DNA of 27,684 bases from a virus (taxonomy: Duplodnaviria > Heunggongvirae > Uroviricota > Caudoviricetes), in IMG/VR virus record IMGVR_UViG_2562617057_000002; one strand, 5' to 3'. Below, one piece after another: positions 3,777-27,270 of this stretch (its first letter is position 1; each line of letters begins with the position of its first letter). Under the pieces are notes generated by a model. The model saw nothing but the letters and a program-made list of their open reading frames with translations. It had not been told where the DNA came from and made no database searches. The position numbers and the translations under genes are program-made.

Positions 3777-3957
3777 TACTACCCTCGTAATGGTGCGACA
3801 GGTACCAGGTGTTCAGACTGGCGTTGCCAGTATAATTTAGTCTTCTTTAATACAGAAGTGGCTTACAGAATTGTAACCGTCTCATTTAAACCGTCTTTCG
3901 CCTCCCTTTCCTGTTTCCGATACTAATGTCCATTTTCGCAGTAAAGGGACATTTAAG

Positions 3958-4599
3958 ATGAATGCACGAAAAGCGGTACTGGCAGACAATCCGGAATTGA
4001 TCCTGCGTGTGCTACAACTGAGATTTGACGAGTCACTGTCGTACCCGCGCATTTCTGCGCAGACCGGTATCAGCAAAACCGCCATTTTTTCTCTGGTGAG
4101 GCGATTTCACCAGGTATTCACTGACTGGCCTCTTTCCGGGGAATATTCCTGCGTGCAACTGGCCCGGGCTTTGTTCCCGGGGCGATACCCTTCAGCCCCG
4201 ACAGTAACTCAGACTGTGAAAACAGAGAAAAACCGCCGGAACCGATTTTCACCGGAGTTTAAATGGAGACTTGTTCAGCAAACTCTTTTACCCGGTGCCT
4301 GTGTCGCACAAATAGCTCGTGAGAACGGAATCAACGATAACCTGCTCTTTAACTGGCGGCATCTCTGGCGTAACGGCGGCCTGCAGCCGACCGGCGAACA
4401 TGAAACATCGCTACTTCCCGTGACGTTAACTCCGGAGCCGGATAATAAAATCCCGGCACCAGTGCAGATACCTGAACAGATGCCCGACAGTCTGTGCTGT
4501 GAGCTGGTTCTGCCGGCCGGAACTCTCAGGCTGAAAGGTGAACTGACACCGGCGTTATTACAGACACTTATCCGCGAAATGAAAGGGAGCAGCCACTGA
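3958..4599 (+). CDS. tnpA: IS66-family accessory protein TnpA-like (213 aa, with N-terminal extension)
   Basis: C-terminal half (RFSPEFKWRLVQQTL...IARENGINDNLLFNWR) matches the IS66 Orf1 HTH motif; first gene of the element; stop overlaps the tnpB start (ATGA). Confidence 0.75.
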   Translation: MNARKAVLADNPELILRVLQLRFDESLSYPRISAQTGISKTAIFSLVRRFHQVFTDWPLSGEYSCVQLARALFPGRYPSAPTVTQTVKTEKNRRNRFSPEFKWRLVQQTLLPGACVAQIARENGINDNLLFNWRHLWRNGGLQPTGEHETSLLPVTLTPEPDNKIPAPVQIPEQMPDSLCCELVLPAGTLRLKGELTPALLQTLIREMKGSSH

Positions 4600-4946
4600 T
4601 GATATCTCTCCCTGCCGGTTCGCGTATCTGGCTGGTTGCCGGTATCACCGACATGCGAAATGGTTTTAACGGCCTGGCATCAAAAGTTCAGAACGTCCTG
4701 AAGGATGACCCGTTCTCCGGGCATCTGTTCATCTTCCGCGGACGCCGGGGTGACCAGATAAAAGTGTTGTGGGCTGACAGTGACGGACTGTGCCTCTTCA
4801 CCAAACGCCTGGAGCGGGGCCGCTTCGTCTGGCCGGTTACCCGTGACGGCAAGGTGCACCTTACTCCGGCTCAGTTATCTATGCTTCTTGAAGGTATCAA
4901 CTGGAAGCACCCGAAACGAACGGAACGCGCTGGCATCCGCATATAA
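4599..4946 (+). CDS. tnpB: IS66-family TnpB (Orf2)
   Basis: 115 aa, MISLPAGSRIWLVAGITDMRNGFNGLA...KVLWADSDGLCLFTKRLERGRF is the characteristic IS66 Orf2 sequence. Confidence 0.85.
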   Translation: MISLPAGSRIWLVAGITDMRNGFNGLASKVQNVLKDDPFSGHLFIFRGRRGDQIKVLWADSDGLCLFTKRLERGRFVWPVTRDGKVHLTPAQLSMLLEGINWKHPKRTERAGIRI

Positions 4947-4965
4947 CCCGTTGTAAAGTGAGGAT

Positions 4966-6537
4966 ATGGACACCTCACTTGCTCATGAGAATGCCCGCCT
5001 GCGGGCACTGTTGCAGACGCAACAGGACACCATCCGCCAGATGGCGAAATACAACCGCCTGCTCTCACAGCGGGTGGCGGCTTATGCTTCCGAAATCAAC
5101 CGGCTGAAGGCGCTGGTTGCGAAACTGCAGCGCATGCAGTTCGGTAAAAGCTCAGAAAAACTTCGCGCTAAAACCGAACGACAGATACAGGAAGCACAGG
5201 AGCGAATCAGCGCACTTCAGGAAGAAATGGCGGAAACGCTGGGTGAGCAATATGACCCGGTACTGCCATCCGCCCTGCGCCAGTCTTCAGCCCGTAAACC
5301 GTTACCGACCTCACTTCCCCGTGAAACCCGGGTCATCCGGCCGGAAGAGGAATGCTGTCCGGCCTGTGGTGGTGACCTCAGTCCTCTGGGGTGTGATGTG
5401 TCAGAGCAACTGGAGCTTATCAGCAGCGCTTTTAAGGTTATCGAAACACAACGTCCGAAACTGGCCTGTTGCCGGTGCGACCATATCGTGCAGGCACCAG
5501 TACCTTCAAAACCCATTGCACGCAGTTATGCCGGAGCGGGGCTTCTGGCTCATATCGTCACCGGGAAGTATGCAGACCATCTGCCGTTATACCGCCAGTC
5601 AGAAATATACCGTCGTCAGGGCGTGGAACTGAGCCGCGCCACGCTGGGGCGCTGGACCGGTGCCGTTGCTGAACTGCTGGAGCCGCTGTATGACGTGCTG
5701 CGCCAGTATGTACTGATGCCCGGTAAAGTCCATGCGGATGATATCCCCGTTCCGGTCCAGGAGCCGGGCAGTGGTAAAACAAGAACTGCCCGGCTGTGGG
5801 TCTATGTCCGTGATGACCGTAACGCCGGTTCACAGATGCCCCCGGCGGTCTGGTTCGCGTACAGCCCGGACCGGAAAGGTATCCATCCACAAAATCACCT
5901 GGCCGGTTACAGCGGTGTGCTTCAGGCCGATGCTTACGGTGGTTACCGGGTGTTATACGAATCCGGCAGAATAACGGAAGCCGCGTGTATGGCTCATGCC
6001 CGGAGAAAAATCCACGATGTGCATGCAAGAGTGCCCACCGACATCACCACGGAAGCCCTGCAGCGTATCGGTGAACTGTATGCCATCGAGGCAGAGGTCC
6101 GGGGCTGTTCAGCAGAACAGCGTCTGGCGGCAAGAAAAGCCAGAGCCGCGCCACTGATGCAGTCACTGTATGACTGGATACAGCAACAGATGAAAACACT
6201 GTCGCGTCACTCGGATACGGCAAAAGCGTTCGCATACCTGCTGAAACAGTGGGATGCACTGAACGTGTACTGCAGTAATGGCTGGGTGGAAATCGACAAC
6301 AACATTGCAGAGAACGCCTTACGGGGAGTGGCCGTAGGCCGGAAAAACTGGCTCTTCGCGGGTTCTGACAGCGGTGGTGAACATGCTGCGGTGTTGTACT
6401 CGCTGATCGGCACATGCCGTCTGAACAATGTGGAGCCAGAAAAGTGGCTGCGTTACGTCATTGAACATATCCAGGACTGGCCGGCAAACCGGGTACGCGA
6501 TCTGTTGCCCTGGAAAGTTGATCTGAGCTCTCAGTAA
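4966..6537 (+). CDS. tnpC: IS66-family transposase TnpC (DDE)
   Basis: 523 aa; N-terminal coiled-coil/leucine-zipper region, Cys cluster (CPACGG...CCRCDH), C-terminal DDE core; typical IS66 Orf3. Confidence 0.85.
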
Positions 6538-6833
6538 ATATCAATACGGTTCTGGCGAGCCGCTTACACAGAATCTGCGTGCGATTCTTTGCTGATTAGA
6601 ATTGCATCAGGAGGTAATGGCGTTACGATAAACTCCCCATTTTCGAGCGTTATCACTTCGTAGTGACCTGGTAAAGAAAGCACAACAATCAATTCTTTAA
6701 CGTTCATAACAAAAAGCCTGTGAACTTTTAACACTTCCCCTTAAGGGGTCCATCCCTCTTCTCCCTGCGCGCTACTTAAGTGTTTTTGATTCTATTCCTG
6801 CGCATTCTGAAAGTTCAAACGAGTTGAAAATCG

Positions 6834-6857
6834 CAACAAAAAACCCGCCGAAGCGGG
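6834..6857 (-). terminator. Rho-independent terminator after the 272-aa membrane-protein gene
   Basis: Minus strand: CCCGCTTCGGCGGG hairpin followed by TTTTTTGTT (plus-strand caacaaaaaacccgccgaagcggg). Confidence 0.5.
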
Positions 6858-6879
6858 TCTGGTTATTGATGAATTAACT

Positions 6880-7698
6880 TCACGGTTTGGGCTGGAAATT
6901 CTTATTCAGCGCTCTGCACTGCTCTTTGTCTTCTTCTTCATGGGCTTTAAATACAGAATAAGTATCAGGGTCAAAAAACGAGATAGATTCCACTTCCCTC
7001 TTGGCTACAAGTATCCGAAAGTCTTCAAGGCTAAGGCCGCCAAGACCTTCCGCTACAATTCCTTCTGACTGATAATGTCGGCGGTAGTTTGTTGTGATGT
7101 TTGTAGTTAACGTACCCTTATCCCGATACCCACTCAACAGCGGAAGAAGTTCAATATGGGTAAAATCGCCGTTTTCAAAACTTGGGCAGATAACAATTCC
7201 AACGTAAAATTTTCTGGATGAGAGTGTTATAATGACGGGAAATTGCCTGACTGCTGCTTCCATCAGGAAGCTCTCTTCTGGACTTGTGGAAACAATTCTT
7301 GCGATAGCATCCAACCTGCGATCCCCTTTCTCTGTTCTTTTTTTGCGCCGCCAACCGCAAAATGCAGCAAGAGCAACAGATGTCATTCCCCAGACTGCAG
7401 ATTTAAGATCCTTTATCGAATTTCCTCCATCAAAAGAGATAGGAAAAACTCTTTTCAGGGCATCAGGACCAAGATGAAAAAAATGCAGAATACCGTTAAT
7501 CAACCAGCGGTATACCCCAAGGAAACCAAGGATCGTACAAACAACCCACGCAACACAGACAAAAACAGCTCCCCAGGTTGCAACAAAAAAATAAGCGTCC
7601 CATCCCACAGAACGCTTATACCTATATCTTGTTTCCAAACAAAGAGTAACATAAACATAACCACTAATCAGTATGACAGCGATCAATAGCGTATTCAT
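6880..7698 (-). CDS. Hypothetical integral membrane protein (272 aa): ~4 N-terminal TM helices plus a ~150-aa C-terminal soluble domain
   Basis: Long ORF in an AT-rich segment; hydrophobic stretches at residues ~3-21, ~35-75, ~100-117 followed by RRKKRTEK (positive-inside); start adjoins the upstream small gene's stop; no family recognised. Confidence 0.6.
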   Translation of the reverse strand: MNTLLIAVILISGYVYVTLCLETRYRYKRSVGWDAYFFVATWGAVFVCVAWVVCTILGFLGVYRWLINGILHFFHLGPDALKRVFPISFDGGNSIKDLKSAVWGMTSVALAAFCGWRRKKRTEKGDRRLDAIARIVSTSPEESFLMEAAVRQFPVIITLSSRKFYVGIVICPSFENGDFTHIELLPLLSGYRDKGTLTTNITTNYRRHYQSEGIVAEGLGGLSLEDFRILVAKREVESISFFDPDTYSVFKAHEEEDKEQCRALNKNFQPKP

Positions 7699-7700
7699 TC

Positions 7701-7907
7701 TTACCCTGGCTTTTTGTTTTCCAATGACTCAAGCTTGTCCAGCTGTTCTTTGATAGCCTTTCTGACCTTGTCGTTCTCAAGGTTAACCATGATGAAACCA
7801 TCGTCGCTTACTTCGAACTTATCCTTGTTTTCTTTAAGAACTTTTGACAACCTGTTCGACGGTGTCTGTATGGTTCCATACCCTCTTATTGCATATGCGA
7901 GACTCAT
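7701..7907 (-). CDS. Hypothetical small soluble protein (68 aa from MSLAYAIRG), first gene of a two-gene cassette
   Basis: Strong Shine-Dalgarno GGAGGT 4 nt upstream of the ATG at 7907; Lys/Glu-rich C-terminus; stop (7701-7703) sits 2 nt before the downstream gene's ATG. Confidence 0.55.
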   Translation of the reverse strand: MSLAYAIRGYGTIQTPSNRLSKVLKENKDKFEVSDDGFIMVNLENDKVRKAIKEQLDKLESLENKKPG

Positions 7908-8076
7908 TCTTACCTCCCATCTTACCGTTATCACCGTGTAGTGACACTGTTACATCCATGTATAAATGCTTTGATACTATGGCTATACCATTAAAATAAG
8001 TTTACCGGAAGACTTTGATCAACTACTTTTCACACCAAATACACAAATAATGTGAAACACAACATAGAAATTGTCA

Positions 8077-8094
8077 AAACCGCCGGGTGGCGGG
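8077..8094 (-). terminator. Rho-independent terminator downstream of the hok gene
   Basis: Minus strand CCGCC-ACCC-GGCGG followed by TTTT; preceded within the 3' UTR by a perfect 9-bp hairpin (8125-8146, GGCGGGAGA/TCTCCCGCC). Confidence 0.5.
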
Positions 8095-8155
8095 TGCGTT
8101 GAGGATGCCTGACACATCAAAGGTGGCGGGAGATTACTCTCCCGCCTGGTCACTC

Positions 8156-8311
8156 TTACTCTCTAGATTCGTAGTCTACGAAGACAGCGACCTCCGTCTG
8201 GCCGGTTCGGATTCGTACCTCATAGAGGTCTTTCCTCGTTACCAGTGCCGTCACAATGACGGTTAAACAGATGACGATCAGGGCGATTAACATCGCCTTT
8301 TGCTGCTTCAT
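8156..8311 (-). CDS. hokD: Hok/Gef-family type I toxin (HokD/RelF-like, 51 aa)
   Basis: MKQQKAMLIALIVICLTVIVTALVTRKDLYEVRIRTGQTEVAVFVDYESRE: single TM helix plus conserved Hok C-terminal motif; the ORF track's 70-aa frame is an in-frame N-terminal extension. Confidence 0.8.
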   Translation of the reverse strand: MKQQKAMLIALIVICLTVIVTALVTRKDLYEVRIRTGQTEVAVFVDYESRE

Positions 8312-8569
8312 AGCCTGCTTCTCCTTGCCTTTCGGCACGTAAGAGGCTAACCTACATGTGTCTAGCATGAAATTGGCCTCAGATTAATGTTAAGCGTCTT
8401 GCAGGACGCGTAATGTTAACCGGGGCTTTTCTCTATCTGCCGTTGGTGTTCATGCCCGAGGCAGATAGCCTCAAGCACCCGCAGTCATTCTACTTAACTA
8501 AGATTTCCCTGCAAACCGTTTTTGTCCAGCACAGTAAATATCCAACTAAACCAATGGAGTTCGCTGTAT

Positions 8570-8749
8570 TTACCGCCAGTATTCAATGCACATGACCGCC
8601 ATGAACACCCCTAAAAAAAGGGCATTTATATATCCAAATATTAATATCAAAACATCAACTTTTTCCATATACCTTGCTGTGAAGATGATGGGCATACATG
8701 ATGCGAACAACCAGAACGCAACAAACAAAAACTGCAATGCGTTTTTCAT
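8570..8749 (-). CDS. Hypothetical small membrane protein (59 aa from MKNALQF, two predicted TM helices)
   Basis: AGGGGGAA Shine-Dalgarno 4 nt upstream of the ATG at 8749; very hydrophobic; AT-rich context next to hok. Confidence 0.35.
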   Translation of the reverse strand: MKNALQFLFVAFWLFASCMPIIFTARYMEKVDVLILIFGYINALFLGVFMAVMCIEYWR

Positions 8750-18957: not shown

Positions 18958-19276
18958 CAATTACACATTTAGTAGCGCCCCTGTCCCCACCAGTTCAGGG
19001 GTTTTTGCTTTCTGATATCCGGGATATTGACAAAGCAACCTGCATTGTTGCAAGATGAACGCACTAGAAACAGTTAAGCGGTCATCCGCACCCGATAGCC
19101 TTGCGGCTTTTTTATGCCTGAAATACGGCACATCCGTACAAAGATCGGGTGGAGAGGCGTAATACAATACCCGTAAGGGGAATATGCCCGGAGCTTCTTA
19201 ACTGGCTCTAGTTGACACCCGATCACCAGCTACTAACTGGTAATCGCAGACTAAAACAGTTAAGGAGGCCACTAAA

Positions 19277-20603: not shown

Positions 20604-22029
20604 TAATGCCAGTCAGTTAAGCAACTGACTGGCTCTTTTTCGGGGCTGTGGGGTATTTCCAGGGCCTCTCCTTTACCACTCTCGGGAAGGCCCTTTCCCT
20701 TCTCGTCGGTAATTTCACAAGTTGTCCCATACTTGCAAGATCGCGCATCAGCTCCGGTATACGTCCCGGTGAAGCGCCCTGCAATGTCATCAGCATTCTC
20801 ATCACCATTCCGCATGATTCTGAGAAACTCAGTTGATTCGGCCAGTAACCTTTCAGATGTTCCGCCATTTTAATCATCTGATATCTCACCAGATTATAAG
20901 CCAGTAAGACACCCCACAGCTCTTGCTCCACAAGCTCCGGCTTTTTACTTCTCAGCGTCAGCCTGCTCAGTTGCATCGTCTGTTTTATCTCCCTGTATCC
21001 CAGTTCGATTTCCCAGCGATGACTGTACAGATCCGCCATTTCTCCTCCGGGGAAGCGCATGGCGTCCGTCATCGACGTCAGCAGATGGCAGACTTTTCCT
21101 TTGCGCGTCACGGTCAGCAGGCGGGCTGTCACTTCATTTCCCAGTCCCGGCCACTTTTTTCGTGCCTGCGGGCTGGTTTTCAGCTTCACCAGATGATCGC
21201 CTTTACCCAGTTTTCTGAGCTCTTCATATTGCGCTCCCTTTCTGAGAGGTATCATCCAGTGGCGGTGTTCTCCCGCCAGGCTCCAGGCATTTAACAGTCC
21301 CAGTGAGTAATAACCTTTATCCATTAACGTCAGAGTGTTATCGCCGGTTTGTTCTATAAGTTGCTCAGCAAGCTCATTTTCGCTGTTCTTCATCGTGCCG
21401 AAGGCTGCAGCCGTCAGCAGATGGCTGGTCAGTTCCATCTGGCAGACCATTTTGACCTGCGGGTAGAGCGCCGGGTTCCCGGCATGTGTCTGGCGGGGGA
21501 AGGCTGCATCGTTCTCTGGTGTATCCGGTGTGCGCCAGAACACACCATCGATGGCCAGCAGGGTCAGGCCGCACCAGTGCGGATGCGGCGTGGCGTTATG
21601 CCAGAGCTGCGCTGTTTTCGTGAACACGCGGCGGACAGCCTCACTTCCCAGGCGCTGGCGGGCCTGAATAACGGCACTGGGGGCAACGAAGGGGCGATTG
21701 CCCGGCAGCATGATGTCCAGGCGATTCACAATCTGGTGAAGAGGTTCTTTACGCTCAAGCGCCATGCCAACAATACACCAGACCATCATTTCGAGGGGAA
21801 GACGGCGCTTGCGTAGCGTTACAGTACCTGATTCGGCAAGGCAACGAGAGATGAGTTCGGGGTCGAGGTAATCCCCCAGAGAAGTCAGTGGGTTACGCAG
21901 AGAATCGTAACGGGATACCAGATCAAGAGCCTGTCCAATGTGCATAAAAAAATCCGGAAACAAGTGAGCGTTTCCGGATTCTTACACAGCCACTGGATCG
22001 GTCAACTGATCCTTAACTGATCGGCATTA
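20604..22029 (-). mobile_element. IS4 (1426 bp) with terminal inverted repeats and a 12-14 bp target-site duplication
   Basis: Ends TAATGCCAGTCAGTTAAG / reverse complement TAATGCCGATCAGTTAAG; direct repeat CTCGGTATTAAAGG at 20590-20603 and 22030-22043. Confidence 0.85.
20617..21945 (-). CDS. insG: IS4 transposase (DDE; InsG-like, 442 aa from MHIGQALDL)
   Basis: Sequence matches E. coli IS4 transposase as recalled; the track frame extends 6 codons further upstream (to 21963). Confidence 0.9.
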
Positions 22030-25331: not shown

Positions 25332-25520
25332 ATGTATAAAATTACAGCCACTATTGAAAAGGAAGGTGGTTCTCCTGCCAGCTGGACAAGATACTCAAAG
25401 ACAAAACTAACGAAATCAGAATGCGAAAAAATGCTCTCAGGGGAAAAAGAAGCAGGCGCTTCCAGAGAGCAGAAAGTAAAACTGATAAATTTTAATTGCG
25501 AGAAACTTCAGTCCTCGTGA
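25332..25520 (+). CDS. Hypothetical small protein (62 aa from MYKITATIEKEGG)
   Basis: TGGAGGTG Shine-Dalgarno before the ATG at 25332. Confidence 0.45.
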   Translation: MYKITATIEKEGGSPASWTRYSKTKLTKSECEKMLSGEKEAGASREQKVKLINFNCEKLQSS

Positions 25521-26995: not shown

Positions 26996-27120
26996 CCAAA
27001 AAGACCGGAATACAGAAATTCGAGTAAATTTCGGGGAATTTCGGGGGAGACATTTGCAACTAATTGATTTCAAATGCAATTAAAAAAAGACCGAATACGA
27101 TTCCTGTATTCGGTCCAGGG
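26996..27120. repeat. att-arm-like repeat region downstream of int
   Basis: Direct repeats AAAAAGACCG(G)AATAC at 26999 and 27085; tandem ATTTCGGGG x2 at ~27029-27048; perfect 10-bp hairpin GACCGAATAC/GTATTCGGTC (27089-27115) with an adjacent A7 run. Confidence 0.4.
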
Positions 27121-27270
27121 AAATGGCTCTTGGGAGAGAGCCGTGCGCTAAAAGTTGGCATTAATGCAGGCTTAGTTGCCTTGCCCTTTAAGAATAGATG
27201 ACGACGCCAGGTTTTCCAGTTTGCGTGCAAAATGGTCAATAAAAAGCGTGGTGGTCATCAGCTGAAATGT

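Follow-up and report, generated by a model that had tools for sequence, protein, structure and literature searches.

Did the insertion sequence (IS) that interrupts this stretch of prophage DNA truncate a real gene, or did it land in a spacer that merely looks like one? The question arises in the first quarter of the window, by which we mean the whole stretch of 27,684 nucleotides analyzed here (IMG/VR record IMGVR_UViG_2562617057_000002), where an element of the IS66 family abuts a small open reading frame (ORF) on the minus strand. An earlier note, made from the letters alone, had proposed that the element clips the 3' end of this ORF and that the flanking repeat marks a genuine transposition. 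We conclude with high confidence that this is what happened, namely, that an IS66-family insertion truncated a genuine small prophage gene, which had 55 codons before the event. The event itself is an ordinary, textbook IS insertion into a hypothetical prophage gene and is covered by known biology.

The segment from 3873 to 6567 on the plus strand was confirmed to be an intact IS66-family insertion sequence, IS679/ISCro1-like, with the genes tnpA, tnpB, and tnpC. It is 2695 bp long and runs from GTAACC to GCTTAC; its ends were fixed from independent copies with perfect 8-bp duplications, and they fall where the earlier note implied. The three genes are consecutive, in canonical order, and all on the plus strand. 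tnpA (3958..4599) encodes a helix-turn-helix accessory protein of 213 amino acids (Pfam HTH_Tnp_1, E = 2.3e-16), and its stop overlaps the start of tnpB at 4599. tnpB (4599..4946) encodes an IS66 Orf2-like accessory protein of 115 amino acids (TnpB_IS66, E = 4.7e-40), and tnpC (4966..6537) encodes the DDE transposase of the IS66 family, with 523 amino acids (DDE_Tnp_IS66, E = 4.1e-104), in which the Pfam domains zf-IS66, LZ_Tnp_IS66, and DDE_Tnp_IS66_C were also found. This set of domains in the three ORFs bears out the family originally assigned to the element. The left terminus reads GTAACCGTCTC... and the right end ...GAGCCGCTTAC. The inverted repeats begin with GTAA and are imperfect, with 17 of 25 positions matching between GTAACCGTCTC... 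and GTAAGCGGCTC..., and GTAA...TTAC ends are common to all the other copies of the element that we examined.

Near-full-length relatives of the element are present in 1471 of 5426 complete Escherichia coli genomes, with more than 2000 near-full-length copies in this species, and they are also borne by many plasmids of Escherichia, Klebsiella, Shigella, and Salmonella; related copies are labelled "IS679 family" or "ISCro1 family" by the Prokaryotic Genome Annotation Pipeline (PGAP). Most of the close copies are 2704 bp long, and the window copy is 2695 bp because its tnpA has an in-frame 9-bp deletion near 4482 compared with this common form. A single 100%-identical copy was found, on plasmid pINV of E. 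coli O121 201805972. In related strains the element is multicopy: as many as 33 places were counted in one genome overall, and the O121 chromosome has 12. Contig ends that stop inside the element number at least 16 in the draft assembly of Escherichia sp. MOD1-EC7003, which indicates a large expansion there. The 2695-bp variant also occurs, with a perfect duplication, in yhaV of another strain, and the variant is therefore mobile. Together with the pair of filled and empty sites described next, the yhaV copy points to an element that is predicted to be transposition-competent.

That the element transposed into this site was examined by in-silico excision, in which positions 3872 to 6574 were removed and the flanks joined. 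Over all 495 bp compared, the joined sequence aligned without a break and with 100% identity to five complete E. coli chromosomes (CFSAN029787, FDAARGOS_943, RMDEC332, RMDEC364, and VL46), none of which carries an IS scar at the site, and the right flank from 6568 to 10294 was identical to CFSAN029787 (100%, 3727 bp). It is therefore the empty site, and not the repeat alone, that excludes chance. Excision restores a 55-amino-acid protein ending in ...ADSVSHFCIKED. At the empty site of CFSAN029787, PGAP annotates a coding sequence of 168 bp, WP_001101065.1, whose translation, MNVKELIVVLSLPGHYEVITLENGEFIVTPLPPDAILISKESHADSVSHFCIKED, is the same as the reconstructed protein. The comparison with prophages lacking the IS, which had been put forward as a check, thus upholds both the transposition and the 55-amino-acid product that was reconstructed from the letters.

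In the window, what is left of this gene lies in two pieces. The truncated gene (6564..6707, minus strand) starts with the ATG at 6707 and consists of 47 codons (MNVKEL...HADSV) followed by a TAA at 6566-6564 that comes from the right end of the IS. The orphaned 3' end (3837..3863, minus strand) holds codons 48 to 55 (SHFCIKED) and the original TAA stop and is contiguous with the gene in the empty-site genomes. The small gene now ends ...HADSV-stop, stopping after Val47, because the IS terminus GTAAGC supplies G+TAA, and the last eight codons are stranded 2.7 kb away. The ORF starting at 6707 is therefore clipped by the right end of the IS, just as proposed. Mechanistically, the element inserted by the usual 8-bp staggered cut of its family, in the lineage of enteroinvasive E. 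coli (EIEC) 53638, at a target (ACAGAATC) that spans codons 45 to 47 of the 55-codon lambdoid-prophage gene.

The insertion is carried only by EIEC 53638, the source of the window. The exact truncated product of 47 amino acids is on record only in AAKB02000001.1, which belongs to EIEC strain 53638, serotype O144 (PMC4374849), and neither IS junction was found in any complete E. coli genome of the collection searched. Neither a 56-amino-acid version of the truncated ORF starting at GTG nor another truncated form has been recorded as a called gene.

The earlier note had described the small ORF as unrecognized, and this part of it did not hold: the ORF is a RefSeq hypothetical protein, belongs to a PHROGs family, and bears the marks of purifying selection. 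The reconstructed protein matches PHROG 34610 with E = 9.5e-33 (residues 1-55 against positions 10-64 of a 64-position profile). Its homologues form 13 protein clusters of conserved length, all from E. coli or Shigella, and the gene is present as one chromosomal copy in each of 89 of the 5426 complete E. coli genomes, including many of O157:H7, with PGAP calling it in every genome listed. Homologues in prophages that are 79-86% identical in DNA keep the frame and the 55-codon length, and reading frame and length are likewise kept among protein homologues that are 78-100% identical. The substitutions fall mostly at third codon positions (4/7/21, 5/7/24, and 3/6/21 at positions 1/2/3 in the homologue comparisons), and the ratio of nonsynonymous to synonymous rates (dN/dS) is 0.07-0.09 at a dS of about 1 (Nei-Gojobori). 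Judged from this pattern, the small gene is clearly under purifying selection and is a real protein-coding gene. It was also said to lack a clear Shine-Dalgarno sequence. The motif is indeed weak, but AGG, GGG, or AGGA is kept 7-9 nucleotides upstream of the ATG in all five loci compared, and a weak ribosome-binding site is therefore present.

The position of the insertion within the gene invites the question of whether the site was chosen. In E. coli VL40 (NZ_CM177011.1, locus 4100-6840), which has the same prophage module, a different IS66-family element, 95.9% identical to the one in the window, interrupts this small gene as well, offset by 3 bp and inverted. Its junction reads ...GCAGATTC|GTAAGCGCATC, and its far side abuts an unrelated phage neck-protein fragment, which points to a later rearrangement. 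A 9-bp palindrome, CAGAATCTG, occupies 6569-6577, and the two targets (6568-6575 in the window and 6571-6578 in VL40) are mirror images about its center; read from the left end of the IS, they are ACAGAATC and GCAGATTC, respectively. Extending the explanation given above, the palindrome might be a preferred, orientation-specific target of IS679-like elements, so that the site would be non-random and the disruption of the gene recurrent. The independent, inverted insertion in VL40 with its mirror-symmetric target speaks for this, as does a weak preference in a sample of 108 unique 8-bp left flanks from genomes, metagenomes, and viral contigs, in which 89 have A or T at position -6, 58 have A at position -4, and CAGA occurs in 12 of the unique duplications (11%) compared with 2.5% of control 8-mers. 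However, the information per position is low (0.29 bit at most), most duplications are without the motif, the motif was chosen after the data had been seen, and there are only two events at the locus, so we regard a preferred site as possible but well short of probable. The more specific proposal, that IS679-like elements have an orientation-specific target of the CAGA type (about NCAGAWTC from the left end) for which CAGAATCTG acts as a two-way hot spot, seems to us rather doubtful. If true, it would explain the independent mirror-image insertions 3 bp apart in the EIEC-type strains 53638 and VL40.

The duplication produced by the truncating insertion requires closer consideration, considering that its two copies are not quite the same. 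The left copy (3865..3872) is ACAGAATT and the right copy (6568..6575) is ACAGAATC, the latter the same as the unoccupied target; the two agree at 7 of 8 positions, the final base on the left being T in place of the target's C. ACAGAAT is therefore found on both sides (3865-3871 and 6568-6574), as the earlier note had stated, but its reading of the duplication as 7 bp long did not stand. The length of the IS66 duplication has been reported as 8 bp (PMC6778807), and in ten other copies of the element, five of them in E. coli genomes and five in metagenomic or viral contigs, perfect 8-bp repeats directly abut GTAA...TTAC. The window duplication is the family's canonical 8 bp with one mismatch. 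Both ends were on a single contig for 19 copies; the duplication is perfect in 10 of these, absent from 8 (rearranged or nested), and mismatched at one base in the window copy alone. Since the base before GTAA is A, C, G, or T across copies, the element itself does not include the T at 3872. The empty-site genomes have ACAGAATC once, at this site, and it is thus the left copy, with its T, that deviates. Across the junction, the window departs from the empty-site genome at position 3872 only (no further difference in 3727 bp to the right or in the about 190 bp tested to the left), and a later random mutation exactly at the base adjacent to the IS would therefore be a coincidence. The T could instead stem from faulty repair during insertion, from a nucleotide brought along from the donor, or from an assembly artefact.

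Of these, an assembly or consensus artefact at the repeat boundary is conceivable, although we hold it only tentatively. According to this interpretation, the Sanger-era assembly of 53638 took in reads from an IS copy flanked by T, and the real duplication is a perfect ACAGAATC. The multicopy state of the element in related strains would be compatible with this, and the mismatch is the very first base outside the repeat, with the remainder identical to the empty-site genome, but it would be just as simple to suppose a genuine C-to-T transition or faulty repair when the element inserted. It might also be supposed that the true duplication is only the 7 bp of ACAGAAT and that the T at 3872 arrived with the element, either as a donor-flank base through imprecise cleavage or as part of a variant left end, TGTAACC.... 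The 100%-identical copy on pINV of O121 201805972 is likewise preceded by T, and the otherwise substitution-free flanks are as this supposition would have them. However, a flank base would match by chance once in four, no other case of 7+1 was seen among the copies surveyed, and the ten independent copies have perfect 8-bp duplications with any base before GTAA, which makes a 7-bp duplication improbable.

The remaining alternative, in which the 55-codon ORF would be no gene at all and the IS would have hit an intergenic spacer separating a 272-amino-acid gene from a NinB-like gene, might appeal to the weak Shine-Dalgarno sequence, the lack of Pfam, PDB, or fold matches, and the lack of any tblastn match in 50,697 deposited phage genomes, but it is already effectively refuted, with next to no probability left to it, by the low dN/dS with its excess of third-position changes, by the frame and length kept across homologues, and by the existence of a PHROG family and of PGAP calls in every genome listed. 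The searches behind these negatives were as follows. The 55-amino-acid protein belongs to no Pfam family, and a PDB sequence search with it gave two non-significant matches only (E = 1.4 and 1.7). Its AlphaFold2 model (mean predicted local distance difference test score, 74.5) has a helix at residues 3-11, a beta-hairpin at 16-30, and a low-confidence tail, and when the model was compared with BFVD and PDB by Foldseek, nothing reached E ≤ 0.001; the top PDB hit was SpoVT (E = 2.4, not significant). On the evidence of the tblastn search of the deposited phage genomes and of the homologues described above, the small gene is known only from prophages.

What the insertion means for the truncated gene and for its neighbors can be judged to some extent from these data. 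The lost tail is well conserved, with S48 and F50 nearly invariant in the protein family, and the truncated protein is for this reason predicted to be impaired. The IS is antisense to prophage transcription and now puts 2.7 kb between the small gene and the NinB-like and Q-like genes; it would likely reduce read-through into these genes, and polarity through the action of Rho on untranslated RNA would be a plausible route. Some points weigh against our explanation as a whole or against these consequences. The duplication is imperfect, with T at 3872 but C at 6575, whereas all 10 other copies of the element that bear a duplication have a perfect one. There is no significant Pfam, PDB sequence, or fold match that would suggest a function for the small gene. 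The lost tail is the low-confidence part of the AlphaFold model and is probably disordered, and the truncated protein might still work, because it keeps the folded core (helix 3-11 and hairpin 16-30). Lastly, the antisense strand of the IS has weak terminator-like sites only, and the effects on expression are predicted ones.

The small gene belongs to a lambdoid (Rac/Qin-like) prophage and is read from the minus strand. Following transcription, it comes after hok/sok, a 68/77-amino-acid gene, and a 272-amino-acid gene and before the NinB-like DUF1367 gene, a DUF1364 gene, a DUF1133/Q-like gene, four tRNA genes, and lysis genes. In most of the relatives, hok directly precedes the small gene. 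The pair formed by the 272-amino-acid gene (PHROG 3630) and the 68/77-amino-acid gene (PHROG 9843) at 6880-7934, between hok/sok and the terminator described below, looks like an inserted cargo module. The same prophage contains an IS110-family element at about 11427-12874, with a 398-amino-acid transposase at 11653-12849, between a DUF1627 gene and a DnaB-like helicase gene, and an IS4-family transposase at 20617-21963, which adjoins an exonuclease VIII (recE-like) ORF that is without its N-terminal part. The empty-site genome CFSAN029787, by contrast, has IS2 in its DUF977 gene. In 53638, the IS66-family insertion is thus one of several decay events, in keeping with the IS expansion and gene loss typical of EIEC and Shigella.

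Upstream of the small gene, three elements were found on the minus strand. An intrinsic terminator (6831..6860), consisting of AGACCCGC-TTCG-GCGGGTTT and then a run of T, closes the upstream transcription unit and is the hok terminator in most of the relatives. It is followed by a candidate sigma-70-like promoter of the small gene at 6789..6818 (TTGAAC, 18 nucleotides, TAGAAT), which is a consensus match only; the promoter-like hexamers are kept in four of the five related loci. The third is a leader block of 45 nucleotides (6736..6780), CTTAAGTAGCGCGCAGGGAGAAGAGGGATGGACCCCTTAAGGGGA, which was delimited from alignments and includes a small CCCC/GGGG hairpin. Little or nothing changes in this block among loci whose coding sequences have reached saturation at synonymous sites. 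Comparison of its RNA structure yielded only a shared 4-bp hairpin, with no compensatory changes; a regulatory RNA, a protein-binding site, and a recombination linker can be listed as possible roles. An 18-codon upstream ORF that overlaps the start codon was considered for translational coupling and rejected, since in relatives only 11, 8, or 3 codons of it are left.

A search of Rfam, with gathering thresholds for the whole window and E ≤ 1 for the intact locus, found nothing over the ORF or the leader, and the sole match at the intact locus was a sub-threshold one to isrK over the terminator (23 bits, where the gathering score is 50). Elsewhere in the window, matches above the gathering score (8306-8480, 25338-25516, 27078-27222, 19143-19232, and 1835-2141) were to the antitoxin RNA sok, RalA (the antitoxin of RalR), SraC/RyeA with SdsR/RyeB, sRNA-Xcc1, and the four tRNA genes. 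The tRNA genes are downstream of the Q-like gene, and SraC/RyeA with SdsR/RyeB is just beyond the integrase gene, so that the prophage abuts the ryeA/ryeB locus.

The locus adds one further IS-mediated gene disruption in a decaying EIEC prophage and has little import beyond annotation. The 55-codon gene merits annotation as a pseudogene in 53638, and the strain-specific junction could serve as a lineage marker. The promoter and leader cassette that the small gene has in common with rem, discussed below, might be of interest to students of small prophage genes.

Compared with known systems, the element resembles IS679 and ISCro1 of the Enterobacteriaceae in its tnpA-tnpB-tnpC layout, its DDE_Tnp_IS66 transposase, its GTAA... 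termini, its imperfect inverted repeats of about 25 bp, and its 8-bp duplication. Through its tnpA deletion, it differs in length (2695 bp) from the common 2704-bp relatives of the IS679/ISCro1 type; IS679 itself is presumably 2704 bp long, and it is this length of the relatives, together with the PGAP labels, that points toward IS679 as the specific element. The reconstructed small protein is identical to WP_001101065.1 and matches the profile of PHROG 34610 from end to end, whereas the gene in the window is without its last 8 codons. The members of PHROG 34610 are called from an upstream GTG, giving 64 amino acids, and this extension is not conserved in frame among the relatives.

The closest parallel in gene position is rem of the cryptic Qin prophage of K-12 (b1561) and of PPompW prophages. 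It occupies the same slot as the small gene, after the hok terminator and before genes of the DUF968/NinB type and the Q type, and the rem loci share its terminator and promoter-like hexamers and have an almost identical leader of 45 nucleotides, which in Qin and in PPompW prophages alike precedes a coding region unrelated to the small gene. Rem has 83-85 amino acids compared with the 55 of the small protein. There is a faint N-terminal resemblance between them (MN.xEL...G.Y.V..ENG), but homology to Rem was considered and found no support: BLASTP gave no alignment at E ≤ 100, and the profile of the 55-amino-acid family scored K-12 Rem at 2.6 bits. Considering that the terminator, the promoter-like site, and the leader are common to coding regions that are unrelated or saturated, the small gene looks like an exchangeable cassette behind a common regulatory module, the same module that stands in front of rem in Qin and PPompW.

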